In this document: piece after piece, positions 2,485 to 58,368 of the stretch
Numbering within the stretch: the first letter of the stretch is position 1
Layout of the letters: each line of letters begins with the position of its first letter
Assembly: GCA_016182015.1 (NCBI GenBank)
Contig: JACOYC010000010.1
Span: forward strand, 1-58,368
Direction: 5' to 3'
DNA: 58,368 bases
DNA from: Nanobdellati archaeon
GTDB lineage: Archaea > Nanobdellota > Nanobdellia > UBA10117
The notes under the pieces: generated by a model
What the model saw: only the letters and a program-made list of their open reading frames with translations
Told to the model about the DNA's origin: nothing
Database searches by the model: none
Made by a program: the position numbers and the translations under genes

Positions 2485-2732
2485 TTTTGCATCATCACCA
2501 ATATCCCTCCTGAAAAAATGGACCAGCCAAAACGCGCAGCGTTTTAGGCGCTGCCCATTTTACCATCCTTCTCCACAAGGGAACATTGGATTGTAAAGCC
2601 TACGTTAGTTCATTTAAAAGGTTTTTGTTTTAGATATATTAAATAATATGTATGCTCTGGCGCAGAAACCCTTTTATTGTTTTCGGTTCTAAAAAATAAT
2701 ACCACCAAGCGAAGCGCGCGTGGCATCACGCA

Positions 2733-2920
2733 AGAAAAATCTTCGGATTTTTCTGCGCCAAGAAAATGCATCGCATTTTCTTGGGAAGCGCCAGCAGATT
2801 CCAGAGAACCCGAGAAAAAGCAAAGCTTTTTCTGGGCCCAGCGAAACTCCGTTTCGCTTGGGAATCGCCGAGCGATTTTCTTGGCCAAGAAAATTCAAGA
2901 AAATTCCTTTGGAATTTTCT
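2733..2920. repeat. array A of seven short hairpin modules (AGAAAAT..ATTTTCT stems)
   Basis: Example modules: AGAAAAATC-TTCG-GATTTTTCT (2733-2754), CCAAGAAAATGC-ATC-GCATTTTCTTGG (2758-2784), AGAAAATTCC-TTT-GGAATTTTCT (2898-2920). Confidence 0.85.
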
Positions 2921-2947
2921 CTGGTTGCGGCTGGGACGGTGATACAA

Positions 2948-3250
2948 ATGGTTAAAAAGGCTGGAACAAAGGCAACTGCAAAAACTGAAAAAGGTGAAAC
3001 TATGAGCGAATCCCAAACAATACAATCTGTGGCGCAACCTGCTGCCCCAACTGTACCTTCTGAAGGCGGGGGCGCTGGCGCAGCTGTAAGAAAAGCGCTT
3101 AAGATTATTCTTGGCGTTGTTGTTGTCCTGCTTGGCCTTGGGCTGCTTTGGTGGTGGTTCGGCGAGTTTGCTCTTGTTTTCAAGGGCATGATTGGAATTG
3201 TTGTCGGGCTGGTCGGTCTTGTGATAATTGCAATTGGCTGGACTGATTAG
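2948..3250 (+). CDS. small membrane protein
   Basis: Internal ATG at 2948 (MVKKAG...) lies just after the hairpin array, followed by two C-terminal hydrophobic helices. The longer ORF from 2720 is read-through of stop-free repeats. Confidence 0.5.
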   Translation: MVKKAGTKATAKTEKGETMSESQTIQSVAQPAAPTVPSEGGGAGAAVRKALKIILGVVVVLLGLGLLWWWFGEFALVFKGMIGIVVGLVGLVIIAIGWTD

Positions 3251-3271
3251 TATTTATTAAATATTTTTATA

Positions 3272-7537: not shown

Positions 7538-8127
7538 CATCCTACAAACATATTCTTGGCACTGTAAACACTGCGCGAAACCCTGAATTTGAAAACAAAA
7601 AGAACAGCCAGCAGGCCTGCGCGGAGATTCTGAACTACGGGCAGGCAAGCTCTGTCCTGGATTACGGGGCAGGCCCGATGGACATTAAAAAGAAGGGCTG
7701 GCTTAATGACAGTATAATATACGTGCCATACGATCCGGACACAAAGAGGGAGGGCGCAGTTCGCAGGCTGCCAGACGGACAATTCGACTGGATAATTTGC
7801 AATCAGGTTGTCGAGCACCTCACTTTAAAGGAAATTGAAGAGTTTCTGGACTACTGTGCAAAACATACAAAGAACATAGTAATATCTACCCCAAACATAA
7901 ATCACCTGAATTGGTATGACTTTCACACGCAAATAACACACATCACGCCGCTGTACTGGCGGCATTTTGCATCCTTTGTTGAGAGCCACGGGTTTTCTGT
8001 TGATAAAATAATATTTGCGATGCCCTTCAGGAACCCGCTAAAAAAACTTTTGTGCAGGCTTTTCGGGAGCTTCCCCTATAATGAGTATTTGATTGTTGCG
8101 AAAAAGAGAGAAAAGATAACTATATAA
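7534..8127 (+). CDS. class I SAM-dependent methyltransferase
   Basis: Motif I-like VLDYGAGPMD, followed by DWIICNQVVEHL, typical of the Methyltransf_11/23 type. Confidence 0.6.
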   Translation: MTSYKHILGTVNTARNPEFENKKNSQQACAEILNYGQASSVLDYGAGPMDIKKKGWLNDSIIYVPYDPDTKREGAVRRLPDGQFDWIICNQVVEHLTLKEIEEFLDYCAKHTKNIVISTPNINHLNWYDFHTQITHITPLYWRHFASFVESHGFSVDKIIFAMPFRNPLKKLLCRLFGSFPYNEYLIVAKKREKITI

Positions 8128-8193
8128 TATTATATATTTTTATATAACTGATTTTAAAAAAACAACTAAAAATATTAAAAAAAATAAAAAGAA

Positions 8194-8326
8194 GTGGCTA
8201 AATTACCACTTTCTCTTCTTTCAGCCGCAAAATCGGCTGGCGCTTTGGTTGCATTTGGCTTTTGCCAAACGCAACAGCGCAAGTGAATACTAAAGCTTCT
8301 GTGGCTTTTACCACTTTCTCTTCTTT
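8194..8326. repeat. direct duplication of the surface-protein gene 3' end flanking a hairpin insert
   Basis: TTACCACTTTCTCTTCTTT at 8203-8221 and 8308-8326, each preceded by GTGGCT. Insert hairpins include CAGCCG..CGGCTG and TTTGGC-TTTT-GCCAAA. Confidence 0.85.
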
Positions 8327-11300
8327 TTCATTGCTGCACCGATTGCGATAACCACTACAATCACAACTAACAGTAACGCCCACATTGTTGTGTTTGTTGT
8401 TGGCTTTGTCGGGCCTACCGCTTGCGTGCCGCCAGCTGAAGGTGTTGCGGTGCCTGCTGCTCCGCCGGCTGCTGTTTCGCCGCCGGCTGCTGTAGCAGCT
8501 GCTGCCTTCTCACCAGATATTGCAAATGTGCTAAAGCCTGGTGTTGTTGCTTTGTATGTTACCTGCGTGTCTGTCTCACTTACAAATGCTGTCGGCAGCG
8601 CATCCCATGTGCCAGTGTACCTCAGCAGCTTTACCGAGCCTTTTACAACATTATTCTCTGTCAGCCAGCTCTTATCGACATTGAACGTTATCTTTGCATC
8701 ACTTACCAACTGGTTGTTTGTCAACCCGCTTGCCTTGATTTCAAGCAGCTTGTACACTTCACCTGATGGCGAGCTGGTGCCTGCTGGTACTTCACCAATC
8801 TTTTCAACAGTTAATTTAACGTTGTTTAGGTTTGCGTCTGGCGTAAAGGTTATTTCGGATACAGCAACTGCCGGCGCTGTAAATTCTGTCTTTGCCTCAG
8901 TATTTGCAGTTATCGATGACAAGATTGCGGATTGCGATGTCTGGCCTTCACCTGCTGCAAGGCCTGCGCCTCCTGCGCCGCCTGATGAGCCGCCGCCGGC
9001 TGTGGAAGTTGTTCCGCCGCCAGCTACATTAGCGCCCCTCAGGCCAAGTCCGCCGCCAGTGAAGTGCTGCAACCTTACCCATATCATCTTTTCAGTTGTG
9101 TTGAGCAGGCAGGCAGTGCCCCTTGCTCCGGTATCGTTGGTGCATATTACTCCGCCAGCTCCATCAGTGCCGTTGCTAATCATGCTTATGTTCCAATCTG
9201 CGAATGGCGTGGTGTTGAATGCCGCGCTATTCTGGAGCGGCGTGCCATTTACAGATACATTCCACACAACATTCCAGTTCTGGTCATAGAGCACTGGTAT
9301 CGTCAGGTTGACGGGTTCACGGTCATCTATGCTGTTATCCTCGCCAGACGTTGTGGAATACGGTATACCTACAAAGACCTCTTCATAGTTCTTTGGCGCC
9401 AGGCTGCCTACTCTAAATATCCTGTTGGCGTTAGCAGTTGAAGACAAATCCTGCGGCAGCAAGTCTGGCTGCACATCTGGCATGCCGCTTGCTACCATGT
9501 CCACGCCGCTGAAGTGTATGTTGATGCCGTTTGATGTCCTTAATCTTATGCTAAGCCTGTCGCCGTAACGCATTGCTGCGAATGGGTTTATGTCGCGGAT
9601 TGTTGAACCTGATGCCAAGACACAGCCGTTTGTCGCCAGGCTTGTTATTGTATTACAAGTCACATTGTGCGACATGAACTGGAACCTTATCTGCTCAAGG
9701 CCTGCCCCTGATGTTGTGCCCCTGTGTTCAGTGCCTGCCGGCCCTGGCCTGCTTGCCCTAAACTCTGTCATTGTCAGGTTGATTGATGCGTTAGTTGCAT
9801 GGTTGTCTGCTGTTATTAGGAACTCCCTTGGCGCATAGCCCGGTGTGTAAACCCGTACCTTCGCGCTTTCGTTCGCGAAGAATGGGAATGCAGCAAGGCC
9901 TGATGCATCGGTTTCTACCATAAACCTTACCTTAATCAGTCTTGGCTGGACGCCAGTCTGCGTGTTATTTGTATTTAGTTCAATGTCAAGGAAGCTTGAG
10001 CCCGCGATTGTTGCGTTGCTTGTTCCGCTCACAACCTGCAGGAGCGTCTGGGACGCATTTACTGGCAGGCTGTTTGTACCATTACCCAAGAAGCTCCATT
10101 CCGGCGTTAATGCATTAGTCGGTGTAGCTATGCCCCTTAACGTAAAGTTAATGCCGAATACATTTGCAGTGCCGACTGTAACATTTGTTATTCCAAGCAT
10201 CCTGTCTCCGCCAGTTCTGGTGGCATTTCCACCTGTCTTGTTGCCGCCGGATGCAAGCAATATCCAGCTTGAGCTTTGCGGCAGTGAGATGTTGTACGCG
10301 ACCGCGGAATAGTTTATCCCGCCGATTACTCTTGTCACGCCTGGCGCGGCTGCAAGCCTTGTAACCGGCACAGCGTTGCTGTCAGTCGGCCTTTGGTATG
10401 CCCGTACGAGCGCGAACTCGTTGCTTATATATGGGATTGCTGTTAAGTTAGTCACGTTATAGCCTGGGCTGCCAAATGCAAGCGAGTTGCCTGATGCGTT
10501 TGTCGGCACAAAGATGTAGCCAGACACGTTTACATAATATGTCGTGAAGTTCATTGTCACGCCGACAACATAGGTTGGCGAGGCCAAAGACCTTGCAGTC
10601 AGGTTTATGGAGCTATTTGACGCAGGGTTAATTATGTCTACCGCCCTTGGAGGAGATTCGCCAGTCATGCTGTAAAATACAATTGTATAGTTTCTGTCCA
10701 ACGGGAGCACCTCTGCTGCTATCTGGCCAGCGGCCATTCCTACTGAAGCACCGCCAGCAACGCCCGCAGTTTTATTGTGTGTTGACTGTGGCGAGCTGTA
10801 GATAACAGTTGTGTTGGTTGCGTTGTTTGTTGTTTTCAAATATGTGATTGGTACGCCCTTTGACTTATCAAATATTATATATGCAAATGCTGTGCCTTGT
10901 GTATTATTCTTTAAGGCCGTGCCGTTATGAGCTGCGCTGAAGTTAAGGCGAATGTCATTTGTAAAGCTTGTTCCGTTGTTAGTGGAGAAAATATCCCACA
11001 AACTTGCACTTCCGTTTCCAGCTGTATTACTTAGGGCATTGCCAGTCGGATCTGTGCCGTTCATTGCACTGGCCGTTCCATTTGGCCATACATATGTCAA
11101 GTTTCCGATAACAGTATCGTTGAACGCTATCATGTATATATTTAGTGCTGGCACAAGCCTGAGGGTCTGGCCTTCAAGGAAGGAGAGCCATGCGGCCTTT
11201 GTCAGTGCTGGCAGGTATGGGTTGACATAGTTTACATAACCGCCCTGCCTATTAGTTCCATCACCAACAACTCGTAAACTATAAAGTGCAGTTGCACTGT

Positions 11301-11805: not shown

Positions 11806-13185
11806 ATGGCTGATGAAACCCAACTCACTGAAAAACCGAAAACAAAAAAATCTTTTCGGAAAATTATTGCTGCAGTTCTTATCGGCCTGCTGATATTATT
11901 TTTAATTGTGTTTGTCTACTCGCTTTCCGGCCAGCAGGCTGGCACGCAGCAGGAAGTGCAAAAAACAGACATTGAATTTGTGCCAAAAAACACCGGCGTG
12001 GGTGCAAAGGCTGAGAACATTTTGCCGGAGCCGCCGAATGCCGGCTCGAGATTCGGCTTTGTAAACGCCGGGCAGGACTTCATCGGGCTGGCAAAGTTTG
12101 GCGTTGGCTGGGACAGGCCGTATCCCGGGCCGTTCAACTGGCAGCAGATTCAGGACGGCAGCTACAACGCTGTTGACGAGTATGTAAAAAACGCACAGCA
12201 GCACGACTTTGCAACTGTCGCAATCGTATGGCCCTACTGGGATGTTGACCAGGATTTATGCCACGCTGAGGACCTGCCTGCTGTCAGATTCGGAAAATTC
12301 TTCGGCGAGCTTGCCAGCAAGCGCGGAAAGCCCTGCGGCCATGACGCATATAAAAATTTCCTGACGGGCTTGGTTGAAAGATATGATGGCGACGGAAAAG
12401 ATGATATGCCTGGCCTGCGCTACGGGATAAAACACTGGGAGATTGCATCGGAGCCTGAAATTCAGGACAGGCGCGACGGAATTGTGTTTTTCCAGGGCAA
12501 GCCAAAGGATTATATCGAAATGCTCCGCGAAACCTACGCTGCAATCAAGACAGCAGACCCCGGCGCAAAAGTGCTGAACGGCGGCGCGGCAACAGCGTCT
12601 GCAGAGCACCTTAGTTTCTGGGAAGAATTCCTGCGGCAGGGCGGCGGCAGGTATGTTGATATATTTAGTATGCATTGCCTTGAGTGCGACGAAAGCCTGG
12701 GCGTGGAGCCTTACGCAAAACTTCTAAAAAAATATGAGATGCAAACGCCAATCTGGGTGACTGATGTTTCCTATTTTGGAAATGATAACGAGCAGGCCAA
12801 GAATCTGTTCCGGGGCTATGTGACCGGATTTGGTTTTGGCGCCCAGAAAATTTTTTATGACAAATGGCAGATAAAAGCCGGCGGAAGGGAGGAGCTTGCC
12901 GCCCTGAAAACTTCAACGCAGGACAGGCTTGCGCTTAACGCCACGGATGCGATTATTAAAAAAATCGGCGGTTTCTGGAAAGTAGAAAAACTCGGGGACG
13001 GCCATTATCGTTTCTATCTTTCAGAGTCTGGCAGGGTGAGGGACGCGTTCCTCAAGGCATCCGAACTGCCTGCCGAACTGCAGGGCAACCTGAAGATGAC
13101 CGCGTATGACGGAACAGACACGATAAGGCATAATGTGCGCAACATAGATTCTGCCGCCGTGCCGGTGATTGTTGAAGCGATTTAG
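11806..13185 (+). CDS. membrane-anchored glycoside-hydrolase-like (clan GH-A-like) protein
   Basis: N-terminal TM helix. The HWEIASEPE segment resembles the WEIxNEP acid/base motif of TIM-barrel glycosidases; the function call is weak. Confidence 0.45.
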   Translation: MADETQLTEKPKTKKSFRKIIAAVLIGLLILFLIVFVYSLSGQQAGTQQEVQKTDIEFVPKNTGVGAKAENILPEPPNAGSRFGFVNAGQDFIGLAKFGVGWDRPYPGPFNWQQIQDGSYNAVDEYVKNAQQHDFATVAIVWPYWDVDQDLCHAEDLPAVRFGKFFGELASKRGKPCGHDAYKNFLTGLVERYDGDGKDDMPGLRYGIKHWEIASEPEIQDRRDGIVFFQGKPKDYIEMLRETYAAIKTADPGAKVLNGGAATASAEHLSFWEEFLRQGGGRYVDIFSMHCLECDESLGVEPYAKLLKKYEMQTPIWVTDVSYFGNDNEQAKNLFRGYVTGFGFGAQKIFYDKWQIKAGGREELAALKTSTQDRLALNATDAIIKKIGGFWKVEKLGDGHYRFYLSESGRVRDAFLKASELPAELQGNLKMTAYDGTDTIRHNVRNIDSAAVPVIVEAI

Positions 13186-13188
13186 TGC

Positions 13189-13229
13189 GGTATACTGCCA
13201 GTATACTTCTAGTATACTTTAAGTATACT
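13189..13229. repeat. AGTATACT palindrome array, 4 units at exact 11-bp period
   Basis: GTATACT starts at 13190, 13201, 13212 and 13223. A T5 run follows. Confidence 0.9.
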
Positions 13230-13290
13230 CTATTTTTAAAATTTTATATGCTCATGCGGGTAATTTATCTGGCGGCGGGAAAGATATATA

Positions 13291-13299
13291 TTTATATAA
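13291..13299 (+). promoter_or_regulatory. TATA-like box upstream of 13320..14561
   Basis: TTTATATAA is centred about 25 nt upstream of ATG 13320. Confidence 0.35.
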
Positions 13300-13319
13300 T
13301 ATGCCTGTTAGCTATAAAA

Positions 13320-14561
13320 ATGGTCAAATTTCAGTACGTCATACTTGGGATGATTTACGCAGGCCTGCTGCTCACCGCCACGCTGTTTATTACTTATTCA
13401 ACGCAGCACAGCACAGACACTGCTGCACGGTACGCCAAGGGCTTTTTGGAAGGCAAAAAAATAATTGCTGAGGAGCAAAGGGAATTTGAGGCTGCGCGGG
13501 AAAAGGAAAAAATTGTAGAGGAAATTCCGCCTGAGCCTGAGAAGCCGGTGTTCACATATGTGCCGCCCTCAGCCGCAAAAATAAATTATACAAAGGGCCT
13601 GATTTTCAACCCGCGGCAGAGGCAGGACTGGGCAGAGGTTATCGCCAGGGCAAAGGGGCTGAATGCAAACCTTGTGGTGATTGAAGTCGAACTGGAAAAG
13701 GGCGCGGATGACAATCCGGAAATTTACTGGTATCCGCAGTGGCAGGGCAGCTGGCAGGAGGAGACAAAAAAAATCGTGAACGAAGCGCACAAGAATGGCC
13801 TGCAGACAGAGCTGCGCCTTGGGACAAGGGTAGAGACTGACGTAAGGGACGGGCCAATTACAGACAATGAAACTGATTATTACAGGAATGCCACGCTGAG
13901 ATTTTTCACAAACATCTCAAAATTCGCGAATGAGTATAAAATGGACCGGCTGACCATTTACAGCGAAATCGACAACCTGAAAAACTGGGGGCACAGGACT
14001 GAATTTATAAGCCTTGTTTTGCAGGATACAAAAAACGAAATTAAAAAACATTATCGCGGAAAAATAGGCGCCGGTTTTTCTTCAGTTGTCCTGACCGACA
14101 GGAAGCTGGACTTTGACATTTCTGGCTATGATTATATATTATTTAGTGCATACGCGACTGACTACAACACAGACTTTGGCTCTTATGAAAACAGGGTTTA
14201 TGAAACATTCAAAGCCGCAAAAATTATGGCAGGCCACCGCCTCATAACTGACATAACTGCGGGCCAGCTCGGCGTTTACGACAAAAACGATACAAGGTAT
14301 GATTATGTCGGCGTAATTGTCAGCGAAAAAGATGAGGCAGGCATGTGGGACAGCTTTTTCTCGAGATTCGGCGGCGAGTTCAGCGGCTTCACGATTGGCT
14401 GCGGCACTTACGCCTACTCAGTCTGCGGGGAAAAATCAGAGGCGGTTGTAAAAGAGTGGTTCGGAAAACTTCCTATCCCTCCGCCAGCCACGGTATCGCT
14501 GGCCAGCAATCTCTCAAAGCCATACAACGCCACGCCAGGGGAGAGGCCGAAGTATTTGTAA
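13320..14561 (+). CDS. membrane-anchored hypothetical protein (possible TIM-barrel hydrolase-like)
   Basis: Start moved to ATG 13320 (MVKFQYVILG..., TM helix), preceded by a TATA-like box. The upstream part of ORF 13185.. is read-through of the AGTATACT array. Confidence 0.5.
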   Translation: MVKFQYVILGMIYAGLLLTATLFITYSTQHSTDTAARYAKGFLEGKKIIAEEQREFEAAREKEKIVEEIPPEPEKPVFTYVPPSAAKINYTKGLIFNPRQRQDWAEVIARAKGLNANLVVIEVELEKGADDNPEIYWYPQWQGSWQEETKKIVNEAHKNGLQTELRLGTRVETDVRDGPITDNETDYYRNATLRFFTNISKFANEYKMDRLTIYSEIDNLKNWGHRTEFISLVLQDTKNEIKKHYRGKIGAGFSSVVLTDRKLDFDISGYDYILFSAYATDYNTDFGSYENRVYETFKAAKIMAGHRLITDITAGQLGVYDKNDTRYDYVGVIVSEKDEAGMWDSFFSRFGGEFSGFTIGCGTYAYSVCGEKSEAVVKEWFGKLPIPPPATVSLASNLSKPYNATPGERPKYL

Positions 14562-17959: not shown

Positions 17960-19302
17960 AACTTCAACACCTTTTTTACCTTTTTTAATCCTTTTATCAT
18001 TGCGTTCACATCTTTTTTATAGTTATATATATAAAAGCTGGCCCGGCAGACCGATTCAACGCCAAGCCTTTTCATCAGTGGCATGGCGCACGCGTGGCCG
18101 CTTCGGATGGCAATGCCTTCGCCGTCAAGTATTTGCGCAACATCATGCGGGTGAGCGCCTTTGATGTTGAATGCAATTACGCCGCCCCGCTGTTTTGCAT
18201 CTTTTGACCCGTAAATCTCAATATCTTTTATTTCTGACAATTTTTCCAGCGCGTATTTTGTCAATTCAATCTCGTGCGTATGCACATTTTCCATTCCTAT
18301 ATTTTCTAAATAATCAATCGCTGCGCCGAATGCAATAACGTCTGCGATGTTTGGCGTGCCTGCCTCGAACTTCCAAGGCAAGTCATTAAACTCTGTTTCA
18401 AACTTCCCAACTTTTTTAATCATGTCACCGCCAAACAAAAATGGTTTCATCTCTTTCAGCAGTTCTTCTTTTGCATACAAAACGCCAACGCCAGTAGGAC
18501 CAAGCATTTTGTGCGATGAGAATGCATAAAAATCGCAGTCAAGTTCCAGGACGTTAACTTTTAGGTGCGGGACTGCCTGCGCACCATCAATCAAAATCTT
18601 CGCATCCGGATTTTTTTCTTTAATTATTTTTACTATTTCGCTTATTGGATTAATTGTTCCTAAAACATTTGAAACATGCGTTAATGAAACAAGCTTTGTA
18701 CTCTTGGTGACAGAATTTTCTAACTGTTTCAAGTCCAGCTCGTAATTTTTATTCACATCAACGAACTTTAATTTAATTCCATTTTCTTGGAGCTGCTGCC
18801 AAGGCACAATGTTGGAGTGGTGCTCTATTATTGTAAGAATAATTTCATCGCCAGCCTTCAAATTGTTTCGCGCCCACGAATATGCAACAAGATTTATCGC
18901 TTCTGTTGTGTTGCGGACAAAAATTATTTCTTTCTCAGATTTCGCATTTATGAATTTTGCGACTTTCTTTCTCGTTGATTCGTATTCTTCTGTTGCCTGC
19001 TCACCGAGCGTATGAATGGCACGGTGAATGTTAGAATTATATTTTTCATAATAACTTTTTAGCGCGTCAATCATAACTTTCGGCTTCTGGCTTGTCGCAG
19101 CGCTGTCCAGATAAACTAACCTTTTGCCATTAATTTTTTGTTTTAAAATTGGAAAGTCCTGCCTAATACCCGAGCCGAACAAAGCTCGGCTGGGCGCAGA
19201 AACCAGAGAAAATTCCGCGGAATTTTCTTGGCCAAGAAAAATGCTTCGGCATTTTTCTTTGGAATCCTGCGGGATTTTTATTGCGTTAGAAAAATCTGCC
19301 AT
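17956..19302 (-). CDS. sufS: cysteine desulfurase SufS (class V aminotransferase)
   Basis: IRQDFPIL..., LVYLDSAATSQKP, SSHKMLGPTGVGVLY and RSGHACAMP. The first ~40 codons of the ATG-started ORF run through hairpin repeats; an alternative TTG start exists at 19182. Confidence 0.9.
   Translation of the reverse strand: MADFSNAIKIPQDSKEKCRSIFLGQENSAEFSLVSAPSRALFGSGIRQDFPILKQKINGKRLVYLDSAATSQKPKVMIDALKSYYEKYNSNIHRAIHTLGEQATEEYESTRKKVAKFINAKSEKEIIFVRNTTEAINLVAYSWARNNLKAGDEIILTIIEHHSNIVPWQQLQENGIKLKFVDVNKNYELDLKQLENSVTKSTKLVSLTHVSNVLGTINPISEIVKIIKEKNPDAKILIDGAQAVPHLKVNVLELDCDFYAFSSHKMLGPTGVGVLYAKEELLKEMKPFLFGGDMIKKVGKFETEFNDLPWKFEAGTPNIADVIAFGAAIDYLENIGMENVHTHEIELTKYALEKLSEIKDIEIYGSKDAKQRGGVIAFNIKGAHPHDVAQILDGEGIAIRSGHACAMPLMKRLGVESVCRASFYIYNYKKDVNAMIKGLKKVKKVLKL
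19170..19279. repeat. hairpin-module array B (same family as A)
   Basis: Perfect 22-nt palindrome AGAAAATTCCGCGGAATTTTCT (19207-19228). Also TTGGCCAAG and AGAAAAATGC-TTCG-GCATTTTTCT (19235-19258). The TTTTCTTGGCCAAGAAAA junction is shared with array A. Confidence 0.85.
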
Positions 19303-19303
19303 T

Positions 19304-20776
19304 TTAATTAATTGCGTTTGTCATCTCTAGTTCTATCAAGCGATTGAACTCAATCGCATACTCGAGTGGCAGCTGTTTCGTGAATTCCTGCAAAAAGCCG
19401 GATACTATTAGCGTAGTGGCCTGCTGCTCTGTCAGGCCTCTGCTCATTAAATAAAATAGCTGGTCCTCAGAAACCTTGCCGACTGTAGCTTCATGGCCTG
19501 TCGAGACATCTTTTTCATCGACCTGCAATGCTGGGAATGTGTCGGACCGCGATTTTTCGTCCAGCATTATTGCATCGCAACGCATGTGCGACTTGGAATT
19601 TTTTGCGCCTTTGATAACTTTTACAATCCCTCTGAACGCAGTGACGCCGCTGTCTTTGCTCACGGATTTTGAAAGTATTGTTGAACTCGTATCAGGTGCA
19701 AGATGGTATGCCTTTGCTCCTGTGTCCTGGCACTGGCCAGCTCCTGCAAAAGCAACTGAAATGATATTCGCCTTTGCCCCGCGGCCTGCAAGCAAGACGC
19801 AAGGATATTTCATCGTGATGCAGCTGCCAACATTCGCGTCAAGCCACTCAACATATGCATCCTCATGTGCCTTTGCCCGTTTCGTGACAAGATTGTAGAT
19901 GTTGCTCGCCCAGTTCTGCAACGTTGTGTATCTGATTCTGGAATTTTTGTGCGCGATCACTTCAACAACCGCGGCGTGCAGCGAGTTTGTTGAGTATGAC
20001 GGTGCGGAGCAGCCTTCAATATAATGTACCTCCGCGCCTTCTTCGGCAATTATCAGTGTGCGCTCAAACTGGCCCATGTTTTTTGCGTTGATTCTAAAAT
20101 AAGCTTGGAGGGGCAGCGGGACTTTCACATTTCTTGGCACATAAACAAACGAGCCACCGGACCAGACTGCTGAGTTTAACGCTGCAAATTTATTGTCTGC
20201 GTACGGAATGACGGTGCCGAAATATTTTTTTACAATTTCCGGGTGCTCGCGGAGTGCTGTATCCATGTCGCAGAATATTACGCCGAGCTTTTCCAAATCC
20301 TCGCGGACTTTGTGGTAAACTGTTTCTGAGTCAAACTGCGTGCCGGCCCCTGACAAAAATTTTCTTTCTGCTTCTGGTATGCCGAGCTTCTCAAATGTTT
20401 TTTTAATATTCTCAGGTACATCGTCCCAGCTTGTAGCGTTTTTTGCCTTTGGGCTTTTGTAATACGTTATTTCGTCAAAATTTACGTTGGAAAGATTAGC
20501 GCCCCATTTTGGCATCGGCCTTTGCAGAAAATGCCTGAAGGCCTTTAACCGCAGGTCGAGCATCCAGGCTGGCTCGTTTTTTAGTGCGGAAATCTTTCTT
20601 ACAATTTCCTCGGATATGCCTTTTGGCAGTTCAATATCATAATCCGCTTCCGTAATTTCGGAATATTTGTTCGGATTTATAGAAAAACCGAGTTTATCAT
20701 CATTCAGTTTTTCTATTCCTTCAACTCGTTTGCGAGTTGAAGCTATATCCAAAAACGATGTCTCTGTTTGTGTCAT
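19304..20776 (-). CDS. sufB: Fe-S cluster assembly protein SufB
   Basis: 490 aa. Typical SufB blocks are visible, for example [21 protein letters not shown] and [21 protein letters not shown]. Confidence 0.95.
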
Positions 20777-21564
20777 TGTGCAGCAGCCTCCGCAACTTTG
20801 AGAGAATCGTAGCCAGATTTTTCTGTTTCTCTTGCCAACTCTGCGCCGCCGCTATTTACAATTTTACCATCAACAATGATATGGACAAAATCCGGCTTAA
20901 CGTGTTCCAAAATTCTGTTGTAGTGCGTTATCAACAGCACGCCAGTCTTGTTTTCCGCAACTGTCTCTTTTATTCCTGCTGCGACTGATTTTAATCCATC
21001 GACATCAGTTCCGGAATCCGGTTCGTCAAGGATTGCAAACTTTGGCTTCAGCACTTCAAGCTGCAAAATCTCTGAACGCTTTTTCTCGCCGCCCGAAAAA
21101 CCGTGATTGAGGCCGCGCTTCAGAAATTCTTCCGGCATTCCGAGTTGCGACATTTTTTCTTTCAGCTGCTTGTGAAATTCTTTAACTGCCGGCGCGCCGT
21201 CGTTTGTTCTGGCCAGCACAGTCCGCAAAAAGTTTGATATGCCAACACCTTCGACTTCCTGCGGATACTGAAATCCGAGAAAGACGCCGAGCTTTGCCCG
21301 CTCGTTAGCTGGCAGATTTATGATTGATTTGCCGTTCAATAAAATGTCCCCGTGCGTGATTTTATATTTCGGGTGGCCCATGAGTGCAAGGCTTAGCGTG
21401 GACTTGCCGGAGCCGTTTGGACCCATCAGCGCGTGCACTTCTCCGGAGTTTATCGTTAGGCTTATTCCACTAATTATTTCTTTTCTTTCACGCTGCACAG
21501 CGGTATTCGCCGAGCTTTGCTCAGCGTTAACAGCAACGTGCAAATCTTTCATTTCAAATTTCAT
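20773..21564 (-). CDS. sufC: Fe-S cluster assembly ATPase SufC
   Basis: Walker [13 protein letters not shown] signature FSGGEKKR and Walker B ILDEPDSG. Start set at [10 protein letters not shown]; MKDLHV at 21552 is also possible. Confidence 0.93.
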
Positions 21565-21916
21565 TTTCAAAACAAACCCTGCAGCCCTCGGGCGTTTCCT
21601 TGTCAAGTTTCATATGCACCTGGCAAAGAACATTTGTCATCAGAACTTTTTTGGAAAGATAATTTAGCGCGGCAATTGGGTGAATAATGCCGGTGAGCAT
21701 CTTTTCCGCAATAATTTTCAATTCGCCCGTTATCTCTTTGTTAAATTTTATTTTTGAGCCGCGCTTGCCTTTAATATACTGCGAAACTGCCGGCTCGGTG
21801 ATTCCCAGCAAGGCCGCAATCTGCTTTTGGCTGAGCCTGCCGGATAGTTCATGGCAGAGCGCGCTCCTTATCGCGGGGAGAATATACCAAACCTCTACCT
21901 CTTGAGGGAGCATCAT
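21554..21916 (-). CDS. HTH transcriptional regulator with C-terminal Cys/His cluster
   Basis: HTH segment SQKQIAALLGITEPAVSQYIKG. C-terminal CQVH-x10-C-x2-C. First gene of the suf cluster. Confidence 0.65.
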   Translation of the reverse strand: MMLPQEVEVWYILPAIRSALCHELSGRLSQKQIAALLGITEPAVSQYIKGKRGSKIKFNKEITGELKIIAEKMLTGIIHPIAALNYLSKKVLMTNVLCQVHMKLDKETPEGCRVCFENEI

Positions 21917-22020
21917 ATATAATTAACAATAGTTAAGTTTTTAAATGTTTTGGCGTTGCAACGAAACAGAACTAAATCGCATGAGCTGGCAAATTTTTAC
22001 CAAATTGGAATCATTACATT

Positions 22021-22174
22021 TGTTCAACATCGTGTATGCCGCTCTCCTTCAAACTTTTTGAGACCAAAAAGTTTGATCAAAAAGTCCCGCCTTCGGCGGA
22101 ATAAAATATTATTATAAACTATTTATTAAGCTAATCAGTTATACCTGTTCAACATCGTGTATGCCGCTCTCCTT
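22021..22174. repeat. 29-bp direct duplication of the guaB 3' end flanking a 96-bp hairpin insert
   Basis: TGTTCAACATCGTGTATGCCGCTCTCCTT at 22021-22049 and 22146-22174. Insert contains CAAACTTTTTG-AGAC-CAAAAAGTTTG and CCGCC-TTC-GGCGG. Confidence 0.9.
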
Positions 22175-23617
22175 AAGGCCTGCTGGCGTTATCCTGACAA
22201 ACTCTGCGCGCTTCCAGAGCTCTTCTATTGTTCTTGCGCCAACATAGCTCATGCCTGAACGCAGCCCGCCGGCCAGCTGCACAACAACCTCTGCAACGCT
22301 GCCTTTGTAAGGGACTGTCACCTGGTCTGCCCCCTCAGAAACATAATCGCCAAGCACTTCTTCGCTTCCGCTTTCCTCTGTTTTTTTTCTGTCGATGTGC
22401 TGCGAGAGCGATGCCGAGCCGCGGTATAGTTTTGACCTTCGGCCGTTCCACATAACTATCTCGCCGGGCGATTCGTCCGTGCCTGCGAATAGCGAGCCAA
22501 ACATGCCTGCTGACGCGCCGGCGGCGATTGCTTTTACAAAATCACCTGGCTGGCGCATTCCACCATCCGCGATTATTGGTACATTGCCTGCGCCTTTTTT
22601 TGCCCACGTGATTGCGGTAAACTGCGGCACGCCAGAGCCTGCCACTAATCTTGTTTTGCAGATTGTGCCGTTGCCAATGCCAACGCGAATTGAGTCCGCG
22701 CCGGCTGCTGCTATATCTCTCGCGCCTTCCTCTGTCGCAATGTTGCCTGCCATCAGGTCTGTGCCCGGGAATTTTTCCCTGAGCCTGCTGACCGCATCGA
22801 GAGACACCTCAAGATGCCCGTGCGCAACATCAACACAAATCAAATCTGCGCCGGCTTTTATCGCTGCCTCCGCCCGCTCGAGATAATCGCCCCGAATGCC
22901 GACTGCCGCCCCAACCACCAAACGGCCCTTCTTGTCGCGCACGGCCAGCGGGTTGAGCCTGTTCGTCAAATCCTTTGCAGTTATCAGCCCGACCAGCCTG
23001 TCGGCCGCATCAACAAGAGGCAGCTTTTCTATGCTGAATTTCCTGAAAACTTCCTTTGCCTGCTCGAGCGTTGTCTCTGGCCTGCCAACAATTAATTTTT
23101 CGCGCGGAGTCATTATCTCGCTTAATTTTTTCCCTTTGTCGCTTTCAAATTTTATGTTGCGGCTTGTTACTATGCCGAGCAGCTTGTTTTCCTGATTTAC
23201 AACTATAAAACTATACACGCCAATTTTGTGCGCGGTCTCCAATGCATCACGGACTGCTGCTTCAGGCGAGATTGTTATCGGCTCATCAATAACTAAATTC
23301 TCCGCGCGTTTTACCTTCAGGACTTCTTCTACTTCTTCTTTGATTGTCATAAACCTGTGAATTATTCCAAGACCGCCAGCCCGCGCCATCGCAGTCGCCA
23401 TGCCTGCTTCCGTTACCGTGCTCATGTCCAGCGAAATTGCCGGCACGTTGATTGTTATATTTCTAGAAATCTTGGCGCGCAAATCAACATCCCTGCGGGA
23501 CATGACTGATGAGCGCTTTGGCACGAGCAGCACATCGTCAAATGCCAGCCCCTCGCGAAGCCCCTCCATGCCTGGAGCAGTATAAAAAGATTTTAAAGTA
23601 TTTCTATTGTCTGACAT
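22139..23617 (-). CDS. guaB: IMP dehydrogenase (with CBS pair)
   Basis: FDDVLLVP, a CBS region, and GIGNGTICKTR / GGMRQPGDFVKA catalytic blocks. Start set at MSDNRN (23617). Confidence 0.9.
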   Translation of the reverse strand: MSDNRNTLKSFYTAPGMEGLREGLAFDDVLLVPKRSSVMSRRDVDLRAKISRNITINVPAISLDMSTVTEAGMATAMARAGGLGIIHRFMTIKEEVEEVLKVKRAENLVIDEPITISPEAAVRDALETAHKIGVYSFIVVNQENKLLGIVTSRNIKFESDKGKKLSEIMTPREKLIVGRPETTLEQAKEVFRKFSIEKLPLVDAADRLVGLITAKDLTNRLNPLAVRDKKGRLVVGAAVGIRGDYLERAEAAIKAGADLICVDVAHGHLEVSLDAVSRLREKFPGTDLMAGNIATEEGARDIAAAGADSIRVGIGNGTICKTRLVAGSGVPQFTAITWAKKGAGNVPIIADGGMRQPGDFVKAIAAGASAGMFGSLFAGTDESPGEIVMWNGRRSKLYRGSASLSQHIDRKKTEESGSEEVLGDYVSEGADQVTVPYKGSVAEVVVQLAGGLRSGMSYVGARTIEELWKRAEFVRITPAGLKESGIHDVEQV

Positions 23618-23619
23618 AC

Positions 23620-23928
23620 ATGGTAAATATAATAGCTGCAAAAGCAGGCGAGATTGCGCAGGGCGGGAGAAAAATTGTAGAAGTAAGTGGCAGGGAGATA
23701 GTTTTATTTAATTTGGGCAACAAATATTATGCAATAGAAAATATCTGCCCCCATCAGGCCGGCCCGGTAGGCGAAGGCGAGATCAGCGAGGGCGATGTCG
23801 TGGCCTGCCCGCTGCACGAATGGCGATTCAACATAAAGACCGGCCAGAGCCCAGACTTCTCGGGCATAGCCGTAAAGACCTTTCCAGTAAGGGTTGAAAA
23901 CGGAAATGTAATTCTTGCGATGGACTAA
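23620..23928 (+). CDS. Rieske [2Fe-2S] domain protein (NirD-like small ferredoxin)
   Basis: CPHQAGP ... CPLHEWRF Rieske ligand motifs. Start at MVNIIAAKAGE. Confidence 0.8.
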   Translation: MVNIIAAKAGEIAQGGRKIVEVSGREIVLFNLGNKYYAIENICPHQAGPVGEGEISEGDVVACPLHEWRFNIKTGQSPDFSGIAVKTFPVRVENGNVILAMD

Positions 23929-25914: not shown

Positions 25915-25944
25915 AGTATACTGACAGTATACTAGTAGTATACT
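25915..25944. repeat. AGTATACT palindrome array, 3 perfect units at 11-bp period
   Basis: Units at 25915, 25926 and 25937. The array fills the E1beta-E2 intercistronic spacer. Confidence 0.9.
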
Positions 25945-26911: not shown

Positions 26912-26930
26912 ATTTAATATTATTTAATAC

Positions 26931-27100
26931 TATTTAATTGTTCTTTTAGATTCCAATCCATCGGACCCGCAGGGGAGAAGGCTTTCTCCCCTTCAGGTGG
27001 ACGCTCACCCTGATTCCCCTCTTCTTGCCTGCGGCAGAGTAATTTATCCATTTTAATTTTCCTTTATTTTATTTAATTGTTCTTTTAGATTCCAATCCAT
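26931..27100. repeat. 31-bp direct duplication of the E1alpha gene 3' end flanking a 108-bp hairpin insert
   Basis: TATTTAATTGTTCTTTTAGATTCCAATCCAT at 26931-26961 and 27070-27100. Insert contains GGGGAGAA-GGCT-TTCTCCCC and CCGCAGG..CCTGCGG. Confidence 0.9.
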
Positions 27101-28145: not shown

Positions 28146-28218
28146 CGTTAACTCGCCTCAAAGGGCGAGTTAACGGAATGGAAAAATCCGCACATCTCAT
28201 GCTTTTGCGGATTTTTTC
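28146..28218. repeat. two hairpin modules in the pdhA/grx divergent intergenic region
   Basis: CGTTAACTCGCC-TCAAAG-GGCGAGTTAACG (12-bp stem), and GGAAAAATCCGCA..TGCGGATTTTTTC, the same stem family as in copies D and E. Confidence 0.8.
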
Positions 28219-28244
28219 ATAAGGTTTGTTTAGAGCTTTGTTTA

Positions 28245-28375
28245 GGCTTTGTTGAAAATCTCTGTTTTTGTCAGAATTATGCCTTACTCACTTCGTTCGC
28301 CGCCGCCGTTTGAAGCTAAAGCTTCAAACATAAAATGGCGGCGACAGTCATAATTCTGACTCTTTCAACAAAGCC
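28245..28375. repeat. 131-nt nested inverted-repeat (MITE-like) element
   Basis: Four concentric stems: GGCTTTGTTGAAA/TTTCAACAAAGCC, GTCAGAATTATG/CATAATTCTGAC, CGCCGCC/GGCGGCG, GTTTGAAGC/GCTTCAAAC. Confidence 0.8.
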
Positions 28376-28390
28376 CTTTATTTAGCAAAA

Positions 28391-33204: not shown

Positions 33205-33342
33205 ATGTCAAAAGTGCCATTGAATATAACTGTTGATAGTGAATTGTTAGTTAAATTTAGAGAACTTTGCAAGAAGTTAGATATAAAAATCTCAACAAAG
33301 ATAAATACCTTGATTAAAGAGTGGCTTGAAAGAAATGGTTAA
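33205..33342 (+). CDS. ribbon-helix-helix (CopG-like) small DNA-binding protein
   Basis: Hand-translated 45 aa: MSKVPLNITVDSELLVKFRELCKKLDIKISTKINTLIKEWLERNG (strand-helix-helix pattern). Its stop overlaps the methyltransferase ATG. Confidence 0.5.
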   Translation: MSKVPLNITVDSELLVKFRELCKKLDIKISTKINTLIKEWLERNG

Positions 33343-34141
33343 AACTAAACACAAAATAATCATCGGCGATTGTTTGGAAAAATTAAAAAATATTCCAGCA
33401 GATAGCGTAGATTTAGTTTTTGCCGATCCACCCTACAACATGTCAAAGAAGCAAGGCCTTGGCTGGAAATACAGCAAGCACGTAACCATGCAGGAAAATT
33501 GGGATATGTTTTCCAAAGATGAATTTTTTAGTTTTAATTTACGATGGATTGCGGAATGCCTGCGCGTGCTGAAGCATGGCGGGAGCTTATGGGTTTGCGG
33601 TTCGTTCCATAACATTTATCAAATTGGATTTATTTTGCAAAATTTCTTCACCGACATAAAAATAAACAATAGTGTTGTTTGGTTTAAGCCAAACGCCCAG
33701 CCAAACATAACTTGCAGGATGTTTACAGAAAGCACGGAGCATTTAATCTGGGCATCTAAAAATGGAATTGGCAAGAAGTGGAAATTTAATTACACAGATA
33801 CAAAAAATCTAATCTCTGATGAAATAAATCCAAAAGGAAAGCAAACGAGAAATGTGTGGAGCATTGCATTAACTCCAAGAAGCGAAAAATGGGCAGGCGA
33901 ACACCCAACACAGAAGCCAGTTGAGTTGCTGCGCAGAGTTCTACTGGCCTGCACAGACGAAGGCGATACTGTGCTTGATCCATTTTTAGGCTCCGGTACA
34001 ACATCATTCGTAGCAAAAACGTTTGGCAGACATTCGATTGGGATTGAAAAAGAGGCAAAGTATTTGCCAATTATTCAGAAAAGACTGAGTCCGGCACAGA
34101 AGAGAATTGGGGAAGAAGCGGAGATTGAGATAATAAGATAA
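33335..34141 (+). CDS. DNA methyltransferase, beta-class (N6-adenine or N4-cytosine)
   Basis: Motif IV VFADPPYN is N-terminal and motif I VLDPFLGSGTT is C-terminal, which is the beta permutation. Confidence 0.85.
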   Translation: MVKTKHKIIIGDCLEKLKNIPADSVDLVFADPPYNMSKKQGLGWKYSKHVTMQENWDMFSKDEFFSFNLRWIAECLRVLKHGGSLWVCGSFHNIYQIGFILQNFFTDIKINNSVVWFKPNAQPNITCRMFTESTEHLIWASKNGIGKKWKFNYTDTKNLISDEINPKGKQTRNVWSIALTPRSEKWAGEHPTQKPVELLRRVLLACTDEGDTVLDPFLGSGTTSFVAKTFGRHSIGIEKEAKYLPIIQKRLSPAQKRIGEEAEIEIIR

Positions 34142-40680: not shown

Positions 40681-40824
40681 GAAAAAATCCGCAAAACTCC
40701 GCCCTTTAGGGCGCGGGATACGCGGATTTTTCCATTCAGCCAAAATTCGTTTTGGCTGACCAGTCGAACTTTGTTCGAACTGTTCCTCAAAATCGCGGTT
40801 AAGCGAGCAGCGATTTTGAGTTAT
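40681..40824 (-). repeat. mosaic hairpin element, copy D (inverted relative to E/F)
   Basis: Its reverse complement shares ATAACTCAAAATCGCTGCTCGC, GTTCGAACAAAGTTCGACTGGTCAGCCAAAA..TTTTGGCTGAATGGAAAAAT with copy E. The last 4 nt overlap the ccdA stop codon. Confidence 0.85.
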
Positions 40825-44887: not shown

Positions 44888-45078
44888 ATAACTCAAAATC
44901 GCTGCTCGCACCTTATCCACGGACTAATGTCGAAAAATATTTTAATTTTTCGAGCACCTCGAAAATGCTTACGCATTTTCGTTGAGTTCGAACAAAGTTC
45001 GACTGGTCAGCCAAAACTCATTTTGGCTGAATGGAAAAATGCGGCTTAAAAGCCGGGGTTTTAGACCCGCATTTTTCC
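44888..45078 (+). repeat. mosaic hairpin element, copy E (five nested or serial hairpins)
   Basis: Bases 44888-44986 are identical to 58270-58368. The remainder aligns with the reverse complement of copy D. Confidence 0.9.
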
Positions 45079-53786: not shown

Positions 53787-54287
53787 TTAGATTAATTTTG
53801 ACAAAATATCTCTTAGCCGCTTAATTTCGCCATTTGTCAAATTATTAATTACTGATTTTATCTGTATTAAGAAACTTTCCGCATTTATAAAAAGTTCCTT
53901 TGTAGAATTTTCTGTAAGTGCCACCAATTGTTTGGATTGAACATAGTATTGCTTATCTATTCTTTCTTCTTTTGCTTCCGATATTACTTTGAAAAGTTCA
54001 TTCTTATTGAACAGGAATTTCAATAGCAAGATTGCGCCGGAATGGTTTTCGCATTTTATGCCGGTTTTGAAAAGCACTGCTGTTAATGAATTATACATCG
54101 CGTAATAAGACATTGTTATAGAATTGTCATATAATTTGTTTTGCAGCAAAATTTTTGCGGACTTCAAGCAATTTTCAGCTTTTTCCAAATACGATAAACA
54201 TATGTCATTCGATGGTTCTACTAATTCTAATTTGCCTTCGCGCCATAACCTAGCCAAAAAATCCAAGTTTGTCATAAAACTCCTCAA
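53787..54287 (-). CDS. HEPN-domain protein (toxin-like partner of MNT)
   Basis: All-helical 166 aa with a KCENHSGAILL segment. Overlaps and follows a nucleotidyltransferase gene. Confidence 0.65.
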   Translation of the reverse strand: MRSFMTNLDFLARLWREGKLELVEPSNDICLSYLEKAENCLKSAKILLQNKLYDNSITMSYYAMYNSLTAVLFKTGIKCENHSGAILLLKFLFNKNELFKVISEAKEERIDKQYYVQSKQLVALTENSTKELFINAESFLIQIKSVINNLTNGEIKRLRDILSKLI

Positions 54288-54813
54288 CTCCTCTTAATAG
54301 TATGTGGTTTTTAATTATTTCCCTTATTAAAGGCGAGCTAGTATCAAACGGCCCGAATTTAACGTTTATTTTAGTGTAAAGTGCTTCCAGATTTTGTTTC
54401 GCCTTTTTGTTTTTTGCTAAAACATAAATATCGATGTCGCTGTCCGGCTTGGCCGCTAATCTGGCATAGCTGCCGAACAAAACCATTAATTTTTCATTGC
54501 TGTTCTTTAATAATTCGTTTATTATTACTTCCATATCTTTGTATTTTTTTAATAATTTTATCAGCTTATACCGCTCCGCGTTAAAAACATAATTTTTGGC
54601 CGGCAGCGTTTTTTTAATTGAGAAGACTTTGTTTTTGCCTTCAGTCTTGTAGTCAAGAACATTCTCTCTAACTAGAAACTCCAGCTTTCTCCGCACTGTT
54701 GAGTGCGGCAGGCCTAGCTGCTTGGCGATGCTGCGCAGGTGAGCATCCTTGCTGAGCAAAAGAAGCACAGCCTCGCTTTCCACATTGTACCAATTTTGAA
54801 CCATGTGTACCAA
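54250..54813 (-). CDS. wHTH-fused minimal nucleotidyltransferase (MNT)
   Basis: N-terminal wHTH (LRSIAKQLGLPHSTVRRKLEFLV) plus LFGSYARLAAKPDSDIDIYV (GS-x9-DxD). Confidence 0.85.
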   Translation of the reverse strand: MVHMVQNWYNVESEAVLLLLSKDAHLRSIAKQLGLPHSTVRRKLEFLVRENVLDYKTEGKNKVFSIKKTLPAKNYVFNAERYKLIKLLKKYKDMEVIINELLKNSNEKLMVLFGSYARLAAKPDSDIDIYVLAKNKKAKQNLEALYTKINVKFGPFDTSSPLIREIIKNHILLRGVEEFYDKLGFFG

Positions 54814-58269: not shown

Positions 58270-58368
58270 ATAACTCAAAATCGCTGCTCGCACCTTATCC
58301 ACGGACTAATGTCGAAAAATATTTTAATTTTTCGAGCACCTCGAAAATGCTTACGCATTTTCGTTGAG
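58270..58368 (+). repeat. mosaic hairpin element, copy F (truncated by window end)
   Basis: 99/99 nt identical to 44888-44986. Confidence 0.9.

Follow-up and report, generated by a model that had tools for sequence, protein, structure and literature searches.

How a gene comes to end twice, and whether the second end has any role, are the questions raised by guaB, the gene for IMP dehydrogenase, in a 58-kb stretch of the genome of a Nanobdellati archaeon (contig JACOYC010000010.1, 58,368 nt, hereafter the window). The last codons and the stop of this gene are followed by a short, hairpin-bearing segment and then by a second copy of the same gene end, referred to as the stub in the following. 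Small hairpin-rich insertions occur at gene boundaries throughout this lineage, and the guaB feature is one of them; some of these inserts are flanked on either side by a copy of the final 19-49 nt of the gene upstream. With moderate confidence, we interpret the guaB case as a hairpin/terminator module whose insertion across the stop codon produced a long, variable target duplication, which was later homogenised and of which the stub is a relic. The analysis covered this one stretch of the source genome, with relatives and metagenome contigs being represented by fetched loci labelled L0xx and L1xx.

The duplicated gene end of guaB

The layout, read on the strand of the gene (minus), consists of the following features:

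22139..23569, minus strand: guaB (IMP dehydrogenase) coding sequence, called protein P0001, 476 aa, C-terminus ...KESGIHDVEQV*, Pfam IMPDH and CBS
22139..22174, minus strand: proximal copy, the last 11 guaB codons plus stop; exact 29-nt core at 22146-22174, 7-nt tail GGTATAA at 22139-22145
22050..22138, minus strand: non-coding insert, 89 nt; AT-rich 5' part, then two hairpins
22075..22101, minus strand: terminator-like hairpin TTCCGCC-GAA-GGCGGGA, then CTTTTTGATC; 38 nt past the guaB stop
22049..22076, no strand assigned: perfect hairpin TCAAACTTTTTG-AGAC-CAAAAAGTTTGA, 12-bp stem, 4-nt loop; adjoins the distal copy with a 1-nt overlap
22014..22049, minus strand: distal copy (stub), the last 11 guaB codons plus stop, ...KESGIHDVEQM*; out of frame with guaB
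21952..22013, minus strand: lineage-unique 62-nt spacer, separating the stub from the promoter block of the helix-turn-helix (HTH) gene downstream
21554..21951, minus strand: conserved promoter block (AAACATTTAAAAACTTAACTATTGTTAA) and HTH regulator gene heading the SufC/SufB/SufS cluster; downstream neighbour of guaB

The open reading frame (ORF) 22139..23641 on the minus strand encodes the IMP dehydrogenase (Pfam PF00478, E=1.8e-124, plus a CBS domain pair). Its end is duplicated in the strict sense: TGTTCAACATCGTGTATGCCGCTCTCCTT is present exactly twice in the window, at 22021-22049 and 22146-22174, and in none of 100 dinucleotide shuffles. When mismatches are allowed, the repeat grows to 36 nt at 92% identity (22014-22049 and 22139-22174), and both of these longer copies contain the stop codon. 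The exact 29-nt cores are separated by 96 nt, and the guaB stop by 89 nt from the stub. A first-pass annotation of the stretch had described a duplication of the last guaB codons around a hairpin insert, and exact match search together with the mapped ORF confirmed its coordinates, reading frame, both stops, and the AT-rich part of the insert. Since the stub is out of the guaB frame and has no ORF upstream, it is regarded as a non-coding relic.

The insert is more stably folded than its shuffles (z = -3.4), and both hairpins that had been named in it are present. The first is the stem at 22049-22076, whose last pair uses the first base of the distal copy. The second, CCGCC-GAA-GGCGG with a run of five T (T5) at 22101->22085, scores as terminator-like on the guaB strand, and the elements of a terminator-like module, TTCCGCCGAAGGCGGGA plus CTTTTTGATC, are found as a GC-rich hairpin and T tract 38 nt after the stop. 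Archaea and bacteria are known to show a peak of perfect inverted repeats (loops of 4-5 nt) right behind their stop codons, a feature that is probably related to termination (PMC13155455), and the position of the guaB hairpin fits this peak. Unlike the E1alpha insert described below, the guaB insert contains no ORF bridging stop and stub. The 62-nt spacer beyond the stub starts with TGATT, a microhomology to the sequence right after the proximal stop.

A census of exact direct repeats of at least 17 nt, spaced 40-400 nt apart, counted four in the 58-kb window and seven in 900 kb of control loci, where such repeats are hence about eight times rarer. Three of the four window repeats span the stop codon of a long ORF (P ~4e-5 by placement alone). 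On the basis of the shuffles and of the rarity in control loci, a chance origin of the guaB repeat was rejected; the duplicated-end layout is a genuine genomic feature.

A technical origin would consist of two strain variants of the region downstream of guaB having been stitched together at a palindrome-terminated contig end. The junction at a perfect palindrome, repeat lengths (19, 29, and 31 nt) within the range of assembler k-mers, and the end of the contig itself inside a repeat are in line with such an artefact. However, the whole guaB interval is reproduced in three independent Logan assemblies (L153-L155, from SRR12113384, SRR12113420, and SRR12113383), which were located via the HTH protein of the window, encoded just downstream of the stub. 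All three contain the guaB end, insert, stub, and HTH gene and are 99.95-99.98% identical to the window, and L154 shows two single-nucleotide polymorphisms (SNPs) in 4450 nt, one of them a C->T change in the distal copy only. Because three assemblies of three runs agree in structure, one of them with a SNP confined to the stub, and because diverged orthologous cases occur in independently assembled relatives, the artefact was rejected and retains a negligible probability.

As a separate observation, L153, L154, and L155 all begin at window position 23676, inside a Rieske gene. This shared start suggests a strain-variable or repeated boundary in the population.

Sister cases at other gene ends

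The same architecture is found at two further gene ends of the window:

26913..27100, minus strand: E1alpha/E1beta junction; proximal copy 27052-27100, 90-nt insert 26962-27051, distal copy 26913-26961
8203..8326, minus strand: 3' end of the gene for a 1083-aa surface protein; proximal copy 8308-8326, 86-nt two-hairpin insert 8222-8307, distal copy 8203-8221, oligo-T tract next

The first-pass annotation had presented guaB as the second case of the E1alpha pattern, which holds, and the surface-protein gene adds a third. It had also proposed that the pattern would be in doubt if neither empty-site alleles nor further instances existed. Further instances were found in the window, in L082, and at orthologous sites in L083 and L084; the empty-site alleles turned up at E1alpha, but not at guaB itself.

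The E1alpha repeat comprises a 31-nt exact core within a 49-nt repeat, the distal copy of which adjoins the E1beta ATG. L083 (93% E1alpha identity) carries an exact empty site, in which E1alpha ends ...NSIK and E1beta starts 8 nt on, and this junction equals, base for base, the distal copy of the window plus the sequence downstream of it. The site is also empty in L087, L088, and L089. The E1alpha module is an insertion relative to an exact empty site, and by comparison with L083 its distal tail is the ancestral one. A filled site with the same architecture is present in L084 (82% E1alpha identity). Its insert is homologous to that of the window in the 3' half, its terminal hairpin is preserved by compensatory changes, and its two copies are ~80% alike; an independent ENA assembly shows the same 147-nt gap as L084. 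In L086 (89% E1alpha identity) the site has decayed, with two perfect hairpins giving a new C-terminus and stop, followed by the ancestral tail and the E1beta ATG. The repeats create sites prone to deletion, which explains why the relatives show filled, empty, and decayed alleles. A look-up of the window E1beta for population alleles returned no record.

A small ORF runs through the E1alpha insert, with 44 aa in the window (26917-27051) and 49 aa in L084 (7028-7177), the two versions differing by in-frame indels. Its ATG overlaps or touches the E1alpha stop, its C-terminus is the duplicated E1alpha peptide, and 1-8 nt separate its stop from the E1beta ATG, a layout that preserves the translational coupling of E1alpha and E1beta. 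Between the distal and proximal copies of L084, five synonymous and two non-synonymous changes were counted.

At the surface-protein gene, the repeat is exact over 19 nt, stop codon included, and the insert holds no ORF from stop to start. L083 (~81% nucleotide identity at this site) has the same insert with two compensatory pairs and 0 of 28 pairs broken, and a degenerate distal copy (13 of 16 positions alike between the copies). Synteny breaks after the stub, where L083 has an extra 162-aa ORF. The insert shows 80% identity vs 86% in the flanking sequence; at E1alpha the corresponding values are 62-72% for the insert and 78-80% for the flanking genes. Being slightly more diverged than the genes around them, the inserts at these two sites are old and vertically inherited, not recent horizontal arrivals. 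Their hairpins are conserved across 14-38% sequence divergence. The cores in the window are perfect, the orthologous pairs in L083 and L084 have diverged, and the window copies share derived states. Together, these observations suggest a recent short-tract homogenisation in this genome and not a recent origin.

The identity of the copies could alternatively reflect a function of the stub, with the hairpin scaffold and the 19-31-nt gene-end copy forming an RNA module under selection. At none of the three window loci do the cores differ, despite the age of the E1alpha and surface-protein duplications, a hairpin always adjoins the copy, an AT-rich, TATA-like stretch is seen in the sequence ~25 nt before the stub on the plus strand, and the E1alpha distal copy looks translated (the excess of synonymous changes in L084, 5 vs 2, and the open 44/49-aa ORF). 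Conceivable forms would be an antisense RNA, transcribed from the opposite strand and pairing by its 5' end with the stop region of the guaB mRNA, or a sense-strand decoy. However, since the copies have diverged in L083 (13/16) and L084 (~80%), their identity is not maintained everywhere. In addition, the stub carries one of the only two SNPs of L154, the loss of the E1alpha insert in L083 had no visible consequence, and Rfam gave no family match for the inserts, neither at gathering score nor at E<=5. A selected RNA module is for these reasons very unlikely.

Two cases outside the window extend the pattern. In L082 (10788-11176), it follows a small 52-aa L40e-like ORF, with a 28-nt repeat of 96% identity and a 167-nt insert. 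The ORF ends with TAA, and KERRLKVAAAK-stop, the duplicated segment, follows in the same frame. This insert forms a three-way nested palindrome (-64 kcal/mol, z = -7.4), and the contig encodes a 146-aa Y1 transposase (Y1_Tnp, IS200/IS605-type; 7998-8438). L091, a metagenome contig of a different organism with 53% GC, carries at 3132-3391 an exact 29-nt duplication at the 3' end of tRNA-Glu(UUC). The duplicated unit consists of the last 19 nt of the tRNA and 10 nt of trailer, and the hairpin-rich insert of 149 nt contains an AGAAAAATGC hairpin as well as an inverted 15/16 copy of the repeat start. As this inverted copy was seen only in L091, it was rejected as a general feature. Short-range repeats were also seen in L097, L100, L126, and L129, metagenome contigs that bear the hairpins, but these are repeated hairpin modules, with no gene-end duplications among them.

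Gene 3' ends are the classic integrase target, and the tRNA-Glu locus of L091 shows the same layout; both speak for a scar of site-specific integration. A small integrative element, or its remnant, would have recombined with the guaB 3' end via a shared core and brought a surrogate gene end, leaving the copies as attL and attR. An identical core with a diverged tail resembles such pairs, the core length varies by locus (19, 29, and 31 nt), and the distal tail at E1alpha is the ancestral chromosomal one, as predicted. At guaB, however, the proximal tail is ancestral, though it is the one predicted to be element-borne, with the distal tail being chromosomal. The inserts measure only 86-167 nt, and Pfam scans of about 50 window ORFs detected no integrase, transposase, recombinase, reverse transcriptase, or Cas1, either in or next to the inserts or elsewhere among these ORFs. 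Five targets with unrelated inserts would require several integrases in a very small genome, and the E1alpha and surface-protein inserts were vertically inherited over 14-38% divergence with conserved hairpins instead of decaying. We therefore consider an integration scar unlikely.

Origin of the insert and its duplicated flanks

Comparison of guaB among relatives shows which of the two ends is the older one. L081, the nearest relative (88% guaB identity), has guaB and a conserved 134-aa ORF, the window has guaB without that ORF, and L083 has the 132/134-aa ORF. In L083, guaB itself is cleanly deleted (14393-14458, vs window 21951-23584 and L081 1871-3705), with a relic of the last codon and stop left behind. 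The proximal tail of the window (CAGGTATAA) matches L081 (CAGGTTTAA) and the L083 relic; the distal tail does not. By this comparison, ...QV-stop is the ancestral guaB tail of the clade and ...QM-stop of the stub the divergent form, and the proximal copy is the vertically inherited guaB end. Nearly every relative, including L084, L087, L156, and L157, has a different arrangement upstream of the HTH-Suf cluster. In L156 and L157, the HTH relatives closer than L081, guaB is not adjacent to the HTH gene and a stub is missing. The idea that the insert is a remnant of the 134-aa ORF of L081 and L083 was rejected by comparison. A metagenome scan for the guaB core gave no match, and a scan of species-representative genomes yielded no relative closer than 52% identity. 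The host is an uncultured DPANN archaeon; its closest relatives bear the label 'DPANN group archaeon', and a related contig encodes aIF2-gamma, aRF1, and aIF5A.

Another possible course of events is homology-facilitated illegitimate recombination, in which DNA of a related strain (a guaB end ...EQM*, the 62 nt, and HTH-Suf) replaced the resident region. A homologous crossover in HTH-Suf and an illegitimate join just after the guaB terminator hairpin would have deleted the 134-aa ORF and left the donor guaB end as the stub. Hairpins are hot spots for illegitimate joins. In agreement with this, synteny breaks exactly at the stub (the 132/134-aa ORF in L083 and L081 vs insert, stub, and unique 62 nt in the window), the region upstream of HTH varies in almost every relative, the tail of the stub differs from the ancestral tail of the clade, and a break also follows the surface-protein stub, where L083 has its extra 162-aa ORF. 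A donor differing at three of seven tail positions should, however, differ in the 29-nt core too, as L081 does at 5 of 29 core positions. Moreover, the E1alpha case shows no synteny break, its insert lying inside an operon, and recombination gives no reason for the donor to have been cut 19-49 nt ahead of the stop in all of three separate events. Replacement by donor DNA is thus an improbable source of the stub.

The first-pass annotation had proposed to compare the inserts for shared termini. The three window inserts have neither termini nor sequence in common, and they match nothing else that was fetched. A second copy of the guaB insert was found neither in the 58-kb window nor in 157 fetched loci or in viral contigs. 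Because of this lack of shared termini or sequence, the three inserts are not copies of one element, and a single repeated mobile element was rejected. Their arrangement, in contrast to their sequence, follows common rules. Read in the direction of the gene, each insert has a strong hairpin as its last element, 0-3 nt from the distal copy. The 5' cores in the window are perfect over 19, 29, and 31 nt, and all differences fall in the last 7-18 nt of the repeats. This clustering in the tails is significant for guaB (last 7 nt, P = 0.007) as well as E1alpha (P = 0.0025), so the 29-bp duplication that had been described stands as an exact repeat but is not a simple target-site duplication. Just past the stop codons, each duplication is bordered on its outer side by a 4-6-nt microhomology (TGATT, AGCCAC, ATGG).

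Several established types of element were compared with these rules. Terminal inverted repeats (TIRs) as in MITEs are absent from the guaB, E1alpha, and surface-protein inserts, the hairpins of which are internal and local, and instead of a fixed short target duplication, lengths of 19, 29(36), and 31(49) nt occur in the window and of 28 and 29 nt in L082 and L091. With respect to REP/RAYT systems, the guaB hairpins lack the AGAAAAnnnC/GnnnTTTTCT motif common in this lineage (see below), and there is no Y1 gene in the window, with one in L082. A simple tandem duplication does not apply, as the sequence between the copies is not repeated past the second one; a decayed longer tandem duplication was rejected as well, the insert having no significant similarity to the DNA after the distal copy or to the gene before the proximal copy. 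The features of a diversity-generating retroelement were not found: the window encodes no reverse transcriptase, the repeat spans only 36 nt, the targets are housekeeping genes, and only two of the three differences between the guaB copies correspond to adenines in the distal copy. Neither a known RNA family nor a tRNA-like element or ribozyme was found, and a search for tRNA or tmRNA detected none. PMC6009581, on C/D-box small RNAs, describes no such layout, and C/D-box motifs were not seen by eye in the guaB insert. A viral or plasmid source of the inserts was rejected, with no exact-motif matches in viral contigs.

Insertion of a hairpin/terminator module across the stop codon, the reading we prefer, could proceed as follows. 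A staggered break, or a double template switch at a fork that has stalled, would let in a hairpin-bearing DNA segment. With the stop codon lying inside the affected stretch, fill-in of the stagger or re-copying would duplicate the target. The gene would then keep its complete proximal end, and the downstream side its original upstream context, i.e., the translation start of E1beta at E1alpha and the oligo-T terminator at the surface-protein gene. The insert boundary at the hairpin edge and the microhomologies fit the template-switch route. As only duplications including the stop leave the gene intact, stop-spanning events would be the ones that are observed. Subsequently, short-tract gene conversion starting from the hairpin-side boundary would keep the 5' part of the copies identical, while the tails would drift wherever a copy was unconstrained (the stub at guaB, the proximal tail at E1alpha). 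The insert could also be deleted precisely by recombination between the copies, as in L083 at E1alpha. By its predicted structure, the guaB insert most likely serves as a transcription terminator or 3' stabiliser, insulating the downstream HTH-Suf operon, and the stub itself is probably without function.

A number of points weigh against this insertion reading. No empty-site allele of guaB itself exists among the relatives examined, and L081, otherwise syntenic, has a 134-aa ORF converging on the guaB stop, in the place taken in the window by the insert, the stub, and 62 unique nt, so that insertion at guaB is argued by analogy to the other sites. The side of the ancestral tail differs, being proximal at guaB and distal at E1alpha. 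A simple target-site duplication predicts copies that are identical at birth, and the mosaic of perfect core and diverged tail needs an extra process, either conversion or an error-prone junction. A source of the insert was not found within the 58 kb of genome, nor does the window encode an enzyme able to make long staggered cuts. The terminator role is a prediction from sequence, and archaeal termination needs oligo-T only.

A wider proposal, possible but doubtful, is that the clade harbours an undescribed, sequence-independent process inserting hairpin-terminated DNA (or RNA-derived) modules at gene 3' ends, tRNA genes included, with long variable target duplications and active re-homogenisation from the hairpin boundary. 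Candidate routes for it would be a target-primed or integrase-like reaction, or hairpin-triggered template switching.

Hairpin insertions in the lineage and in known systems

The duplicated gene ends stand in a lineage that is rich in hairpin insertions of its own at gene boundaries. The window contains 15 intergenic perfect hairpins, and the features belonging to this background are:

19172-19303 (SufB/SufS junction): SufS in-frame insert, ~132 nt (44 codons), four hairpins; right after MADF (codon 4)
20651-20745 (SufC/SufB junction): SufB N-terminal in-frame insert, ~66 nt, vs L083, L081, and L087; perfect 10-bp hairpin at 20719-20742
28246-28376: nested palindrome, ~130 nt, 14-nt TIRs (AGG(G)CTTTGTTGAAA); upstream of E1alpha, inserted relative to L083
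2733-2920: six perfect hairpins with the stem motif AGAAAAnnnC/GnnnTTTTCT; downstream of the S8 peptidase gene
44888-44998 and 58270-58368: dispersed repeat of at least 99 nt, 100% identity, nested hairpins; the contig ends inside the second copy

The SufS insert is absent in L083, L087, and L088, where SufB and SufS abut, and two of its four hairpins belong to the AGAAAA...TTTTCT family. The underlying AGAAAAnnnC/GnnnTTTTCT motif is present in many hairpins of the window, in the L082 insert, and in 62 metagenome contigs. Two hairpins adjoining the nested palindrome upstream of E1alpha (28146-28240) are common to L083 and absent in L084. Two dubious ORFs that overlap each other (2689..3189 on the minus and 2720..3250 on the plus strand), neither with a Pfam match, enclose the six hairpins downstream of the S8 peptidase gene. 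A module related to the dispersed repeat occurs in L126, and the hairpin TCAGCCAAAA-N4-TTTTGGCTGA is found twice, at 40736-40759 and 45007-45030.

Three further observations concern other parts of the window. Paired AGTATACT-N3-AGTATACT palindromes lie at 13200-13229 and 25915-25944, at the starts of two genes (13185..14561 on the plus strand, and upstream of the E2 gene), and could be the operator of a shared regulator. A HEPN-domain protein and a minimal nucleotidyltransferase, a pair typical of toxin-antitoxin modules, are encoded next to each other at 53787-54813, and a DNA N6/N4 methyltransferase at 33326-34141.

Small palindromic insertions are well known in bacteria and organelles. REP/BIME, Correia, and ERIC repeats as well as MITEs resemble the guaB class in being short hairpin-forming modules that lie after stops or between operon genes and encode no protein. 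Further shared traits of REP/BIME-type repeats are their gain and loss between close relatives and their frequent role as terminators or mRNA stabilisers, and the window does hold a truly dispersed hairpin repeat. Unlike REP/BIME and MITEs, the three duplication-flanked inserts are each unique, with neither TIRs spanning the element nor a fixed short target duplication; they are flanked by long, variable (19-49 nt) gene-end duplications, their host is a DPANN archaeon, and the window encodes neither RAYT nor another transposase.

Mycobacterial MIRUs are intergenic operon units of 40-100 bp, with small ORFs that overlap the stop of one neighbouring gene and the start of the other. The 44-aa ORF (49 aa in L084) bridging stop and start in the E1alpha/E1beta insert is of this kind, whereas the guaB and surface-protein inserts have no such ORF, and MIRUs are a repeated family without duplication of the last codons upstream. 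Rickettsia palindromic elements (RPEs) are palindromic repeats of one sequence family sitting in frame within protein genes. The hairpin modules in SufS (132 nt) and SufB (about 66 nt), in frame and seen relative to L083, L081, and L087, are similar to them; the guaB insert, unlike RPEs, lies past the stop codon and has a gene-end duplication. With attL/attR pairs, the feature shares direct repeats that include a gene 3' end, an identical core with a diverged rest, and an intact gene, but the window has no integrase, the "element" would measure ~90 nt, and the ancestral tail of guaB is on the wrong side.

Long variable duplications around mutually unrelated inserts are also left by target-primed insertion of LINEs and SINEs and by fork stalling and template switching or microhomology-mediated break-induced replication (FoSTeS/MMBIR). 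The likeness to FoSTeS/MMBIR includes the microhomologies at the outer edge and an insert boundary that coincides with a hairpin end, a point at which a polymerase would dissociate. Unlike LINE/SINE insertions, there is no poly-A tract and no reverse transcriptase nearby. To our knowledge, neither a target-primed nor a template-switch process has been described as making gene-end duplications in archaea. A literature search found no description of small palindromic insertions in DPANN archaea and no version that duplicates 19-49 nt of the upstream gene end. What distinguishes the small hairpin insertions described here is their DPANN host together with the long gene-end duplications.

For genome annotation, the stubs represent pseudo gene ends that can mislead gene callers. 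A general occurrence of the pattern would show how very compact genomes, in which genes overlap or abut, can gain terminator or hairpin modules while both neighbours are spared. Small new ORFs, e.g., the one of 44/49 aa at E1alpha/E1beta, could likewise arise in this way, as could insertions within the reading frame of proteins like SufS and SufB. Should the proposed clade-wide process prove true, terminators and operon junctions would be continually rewritten in these reduced genomes.

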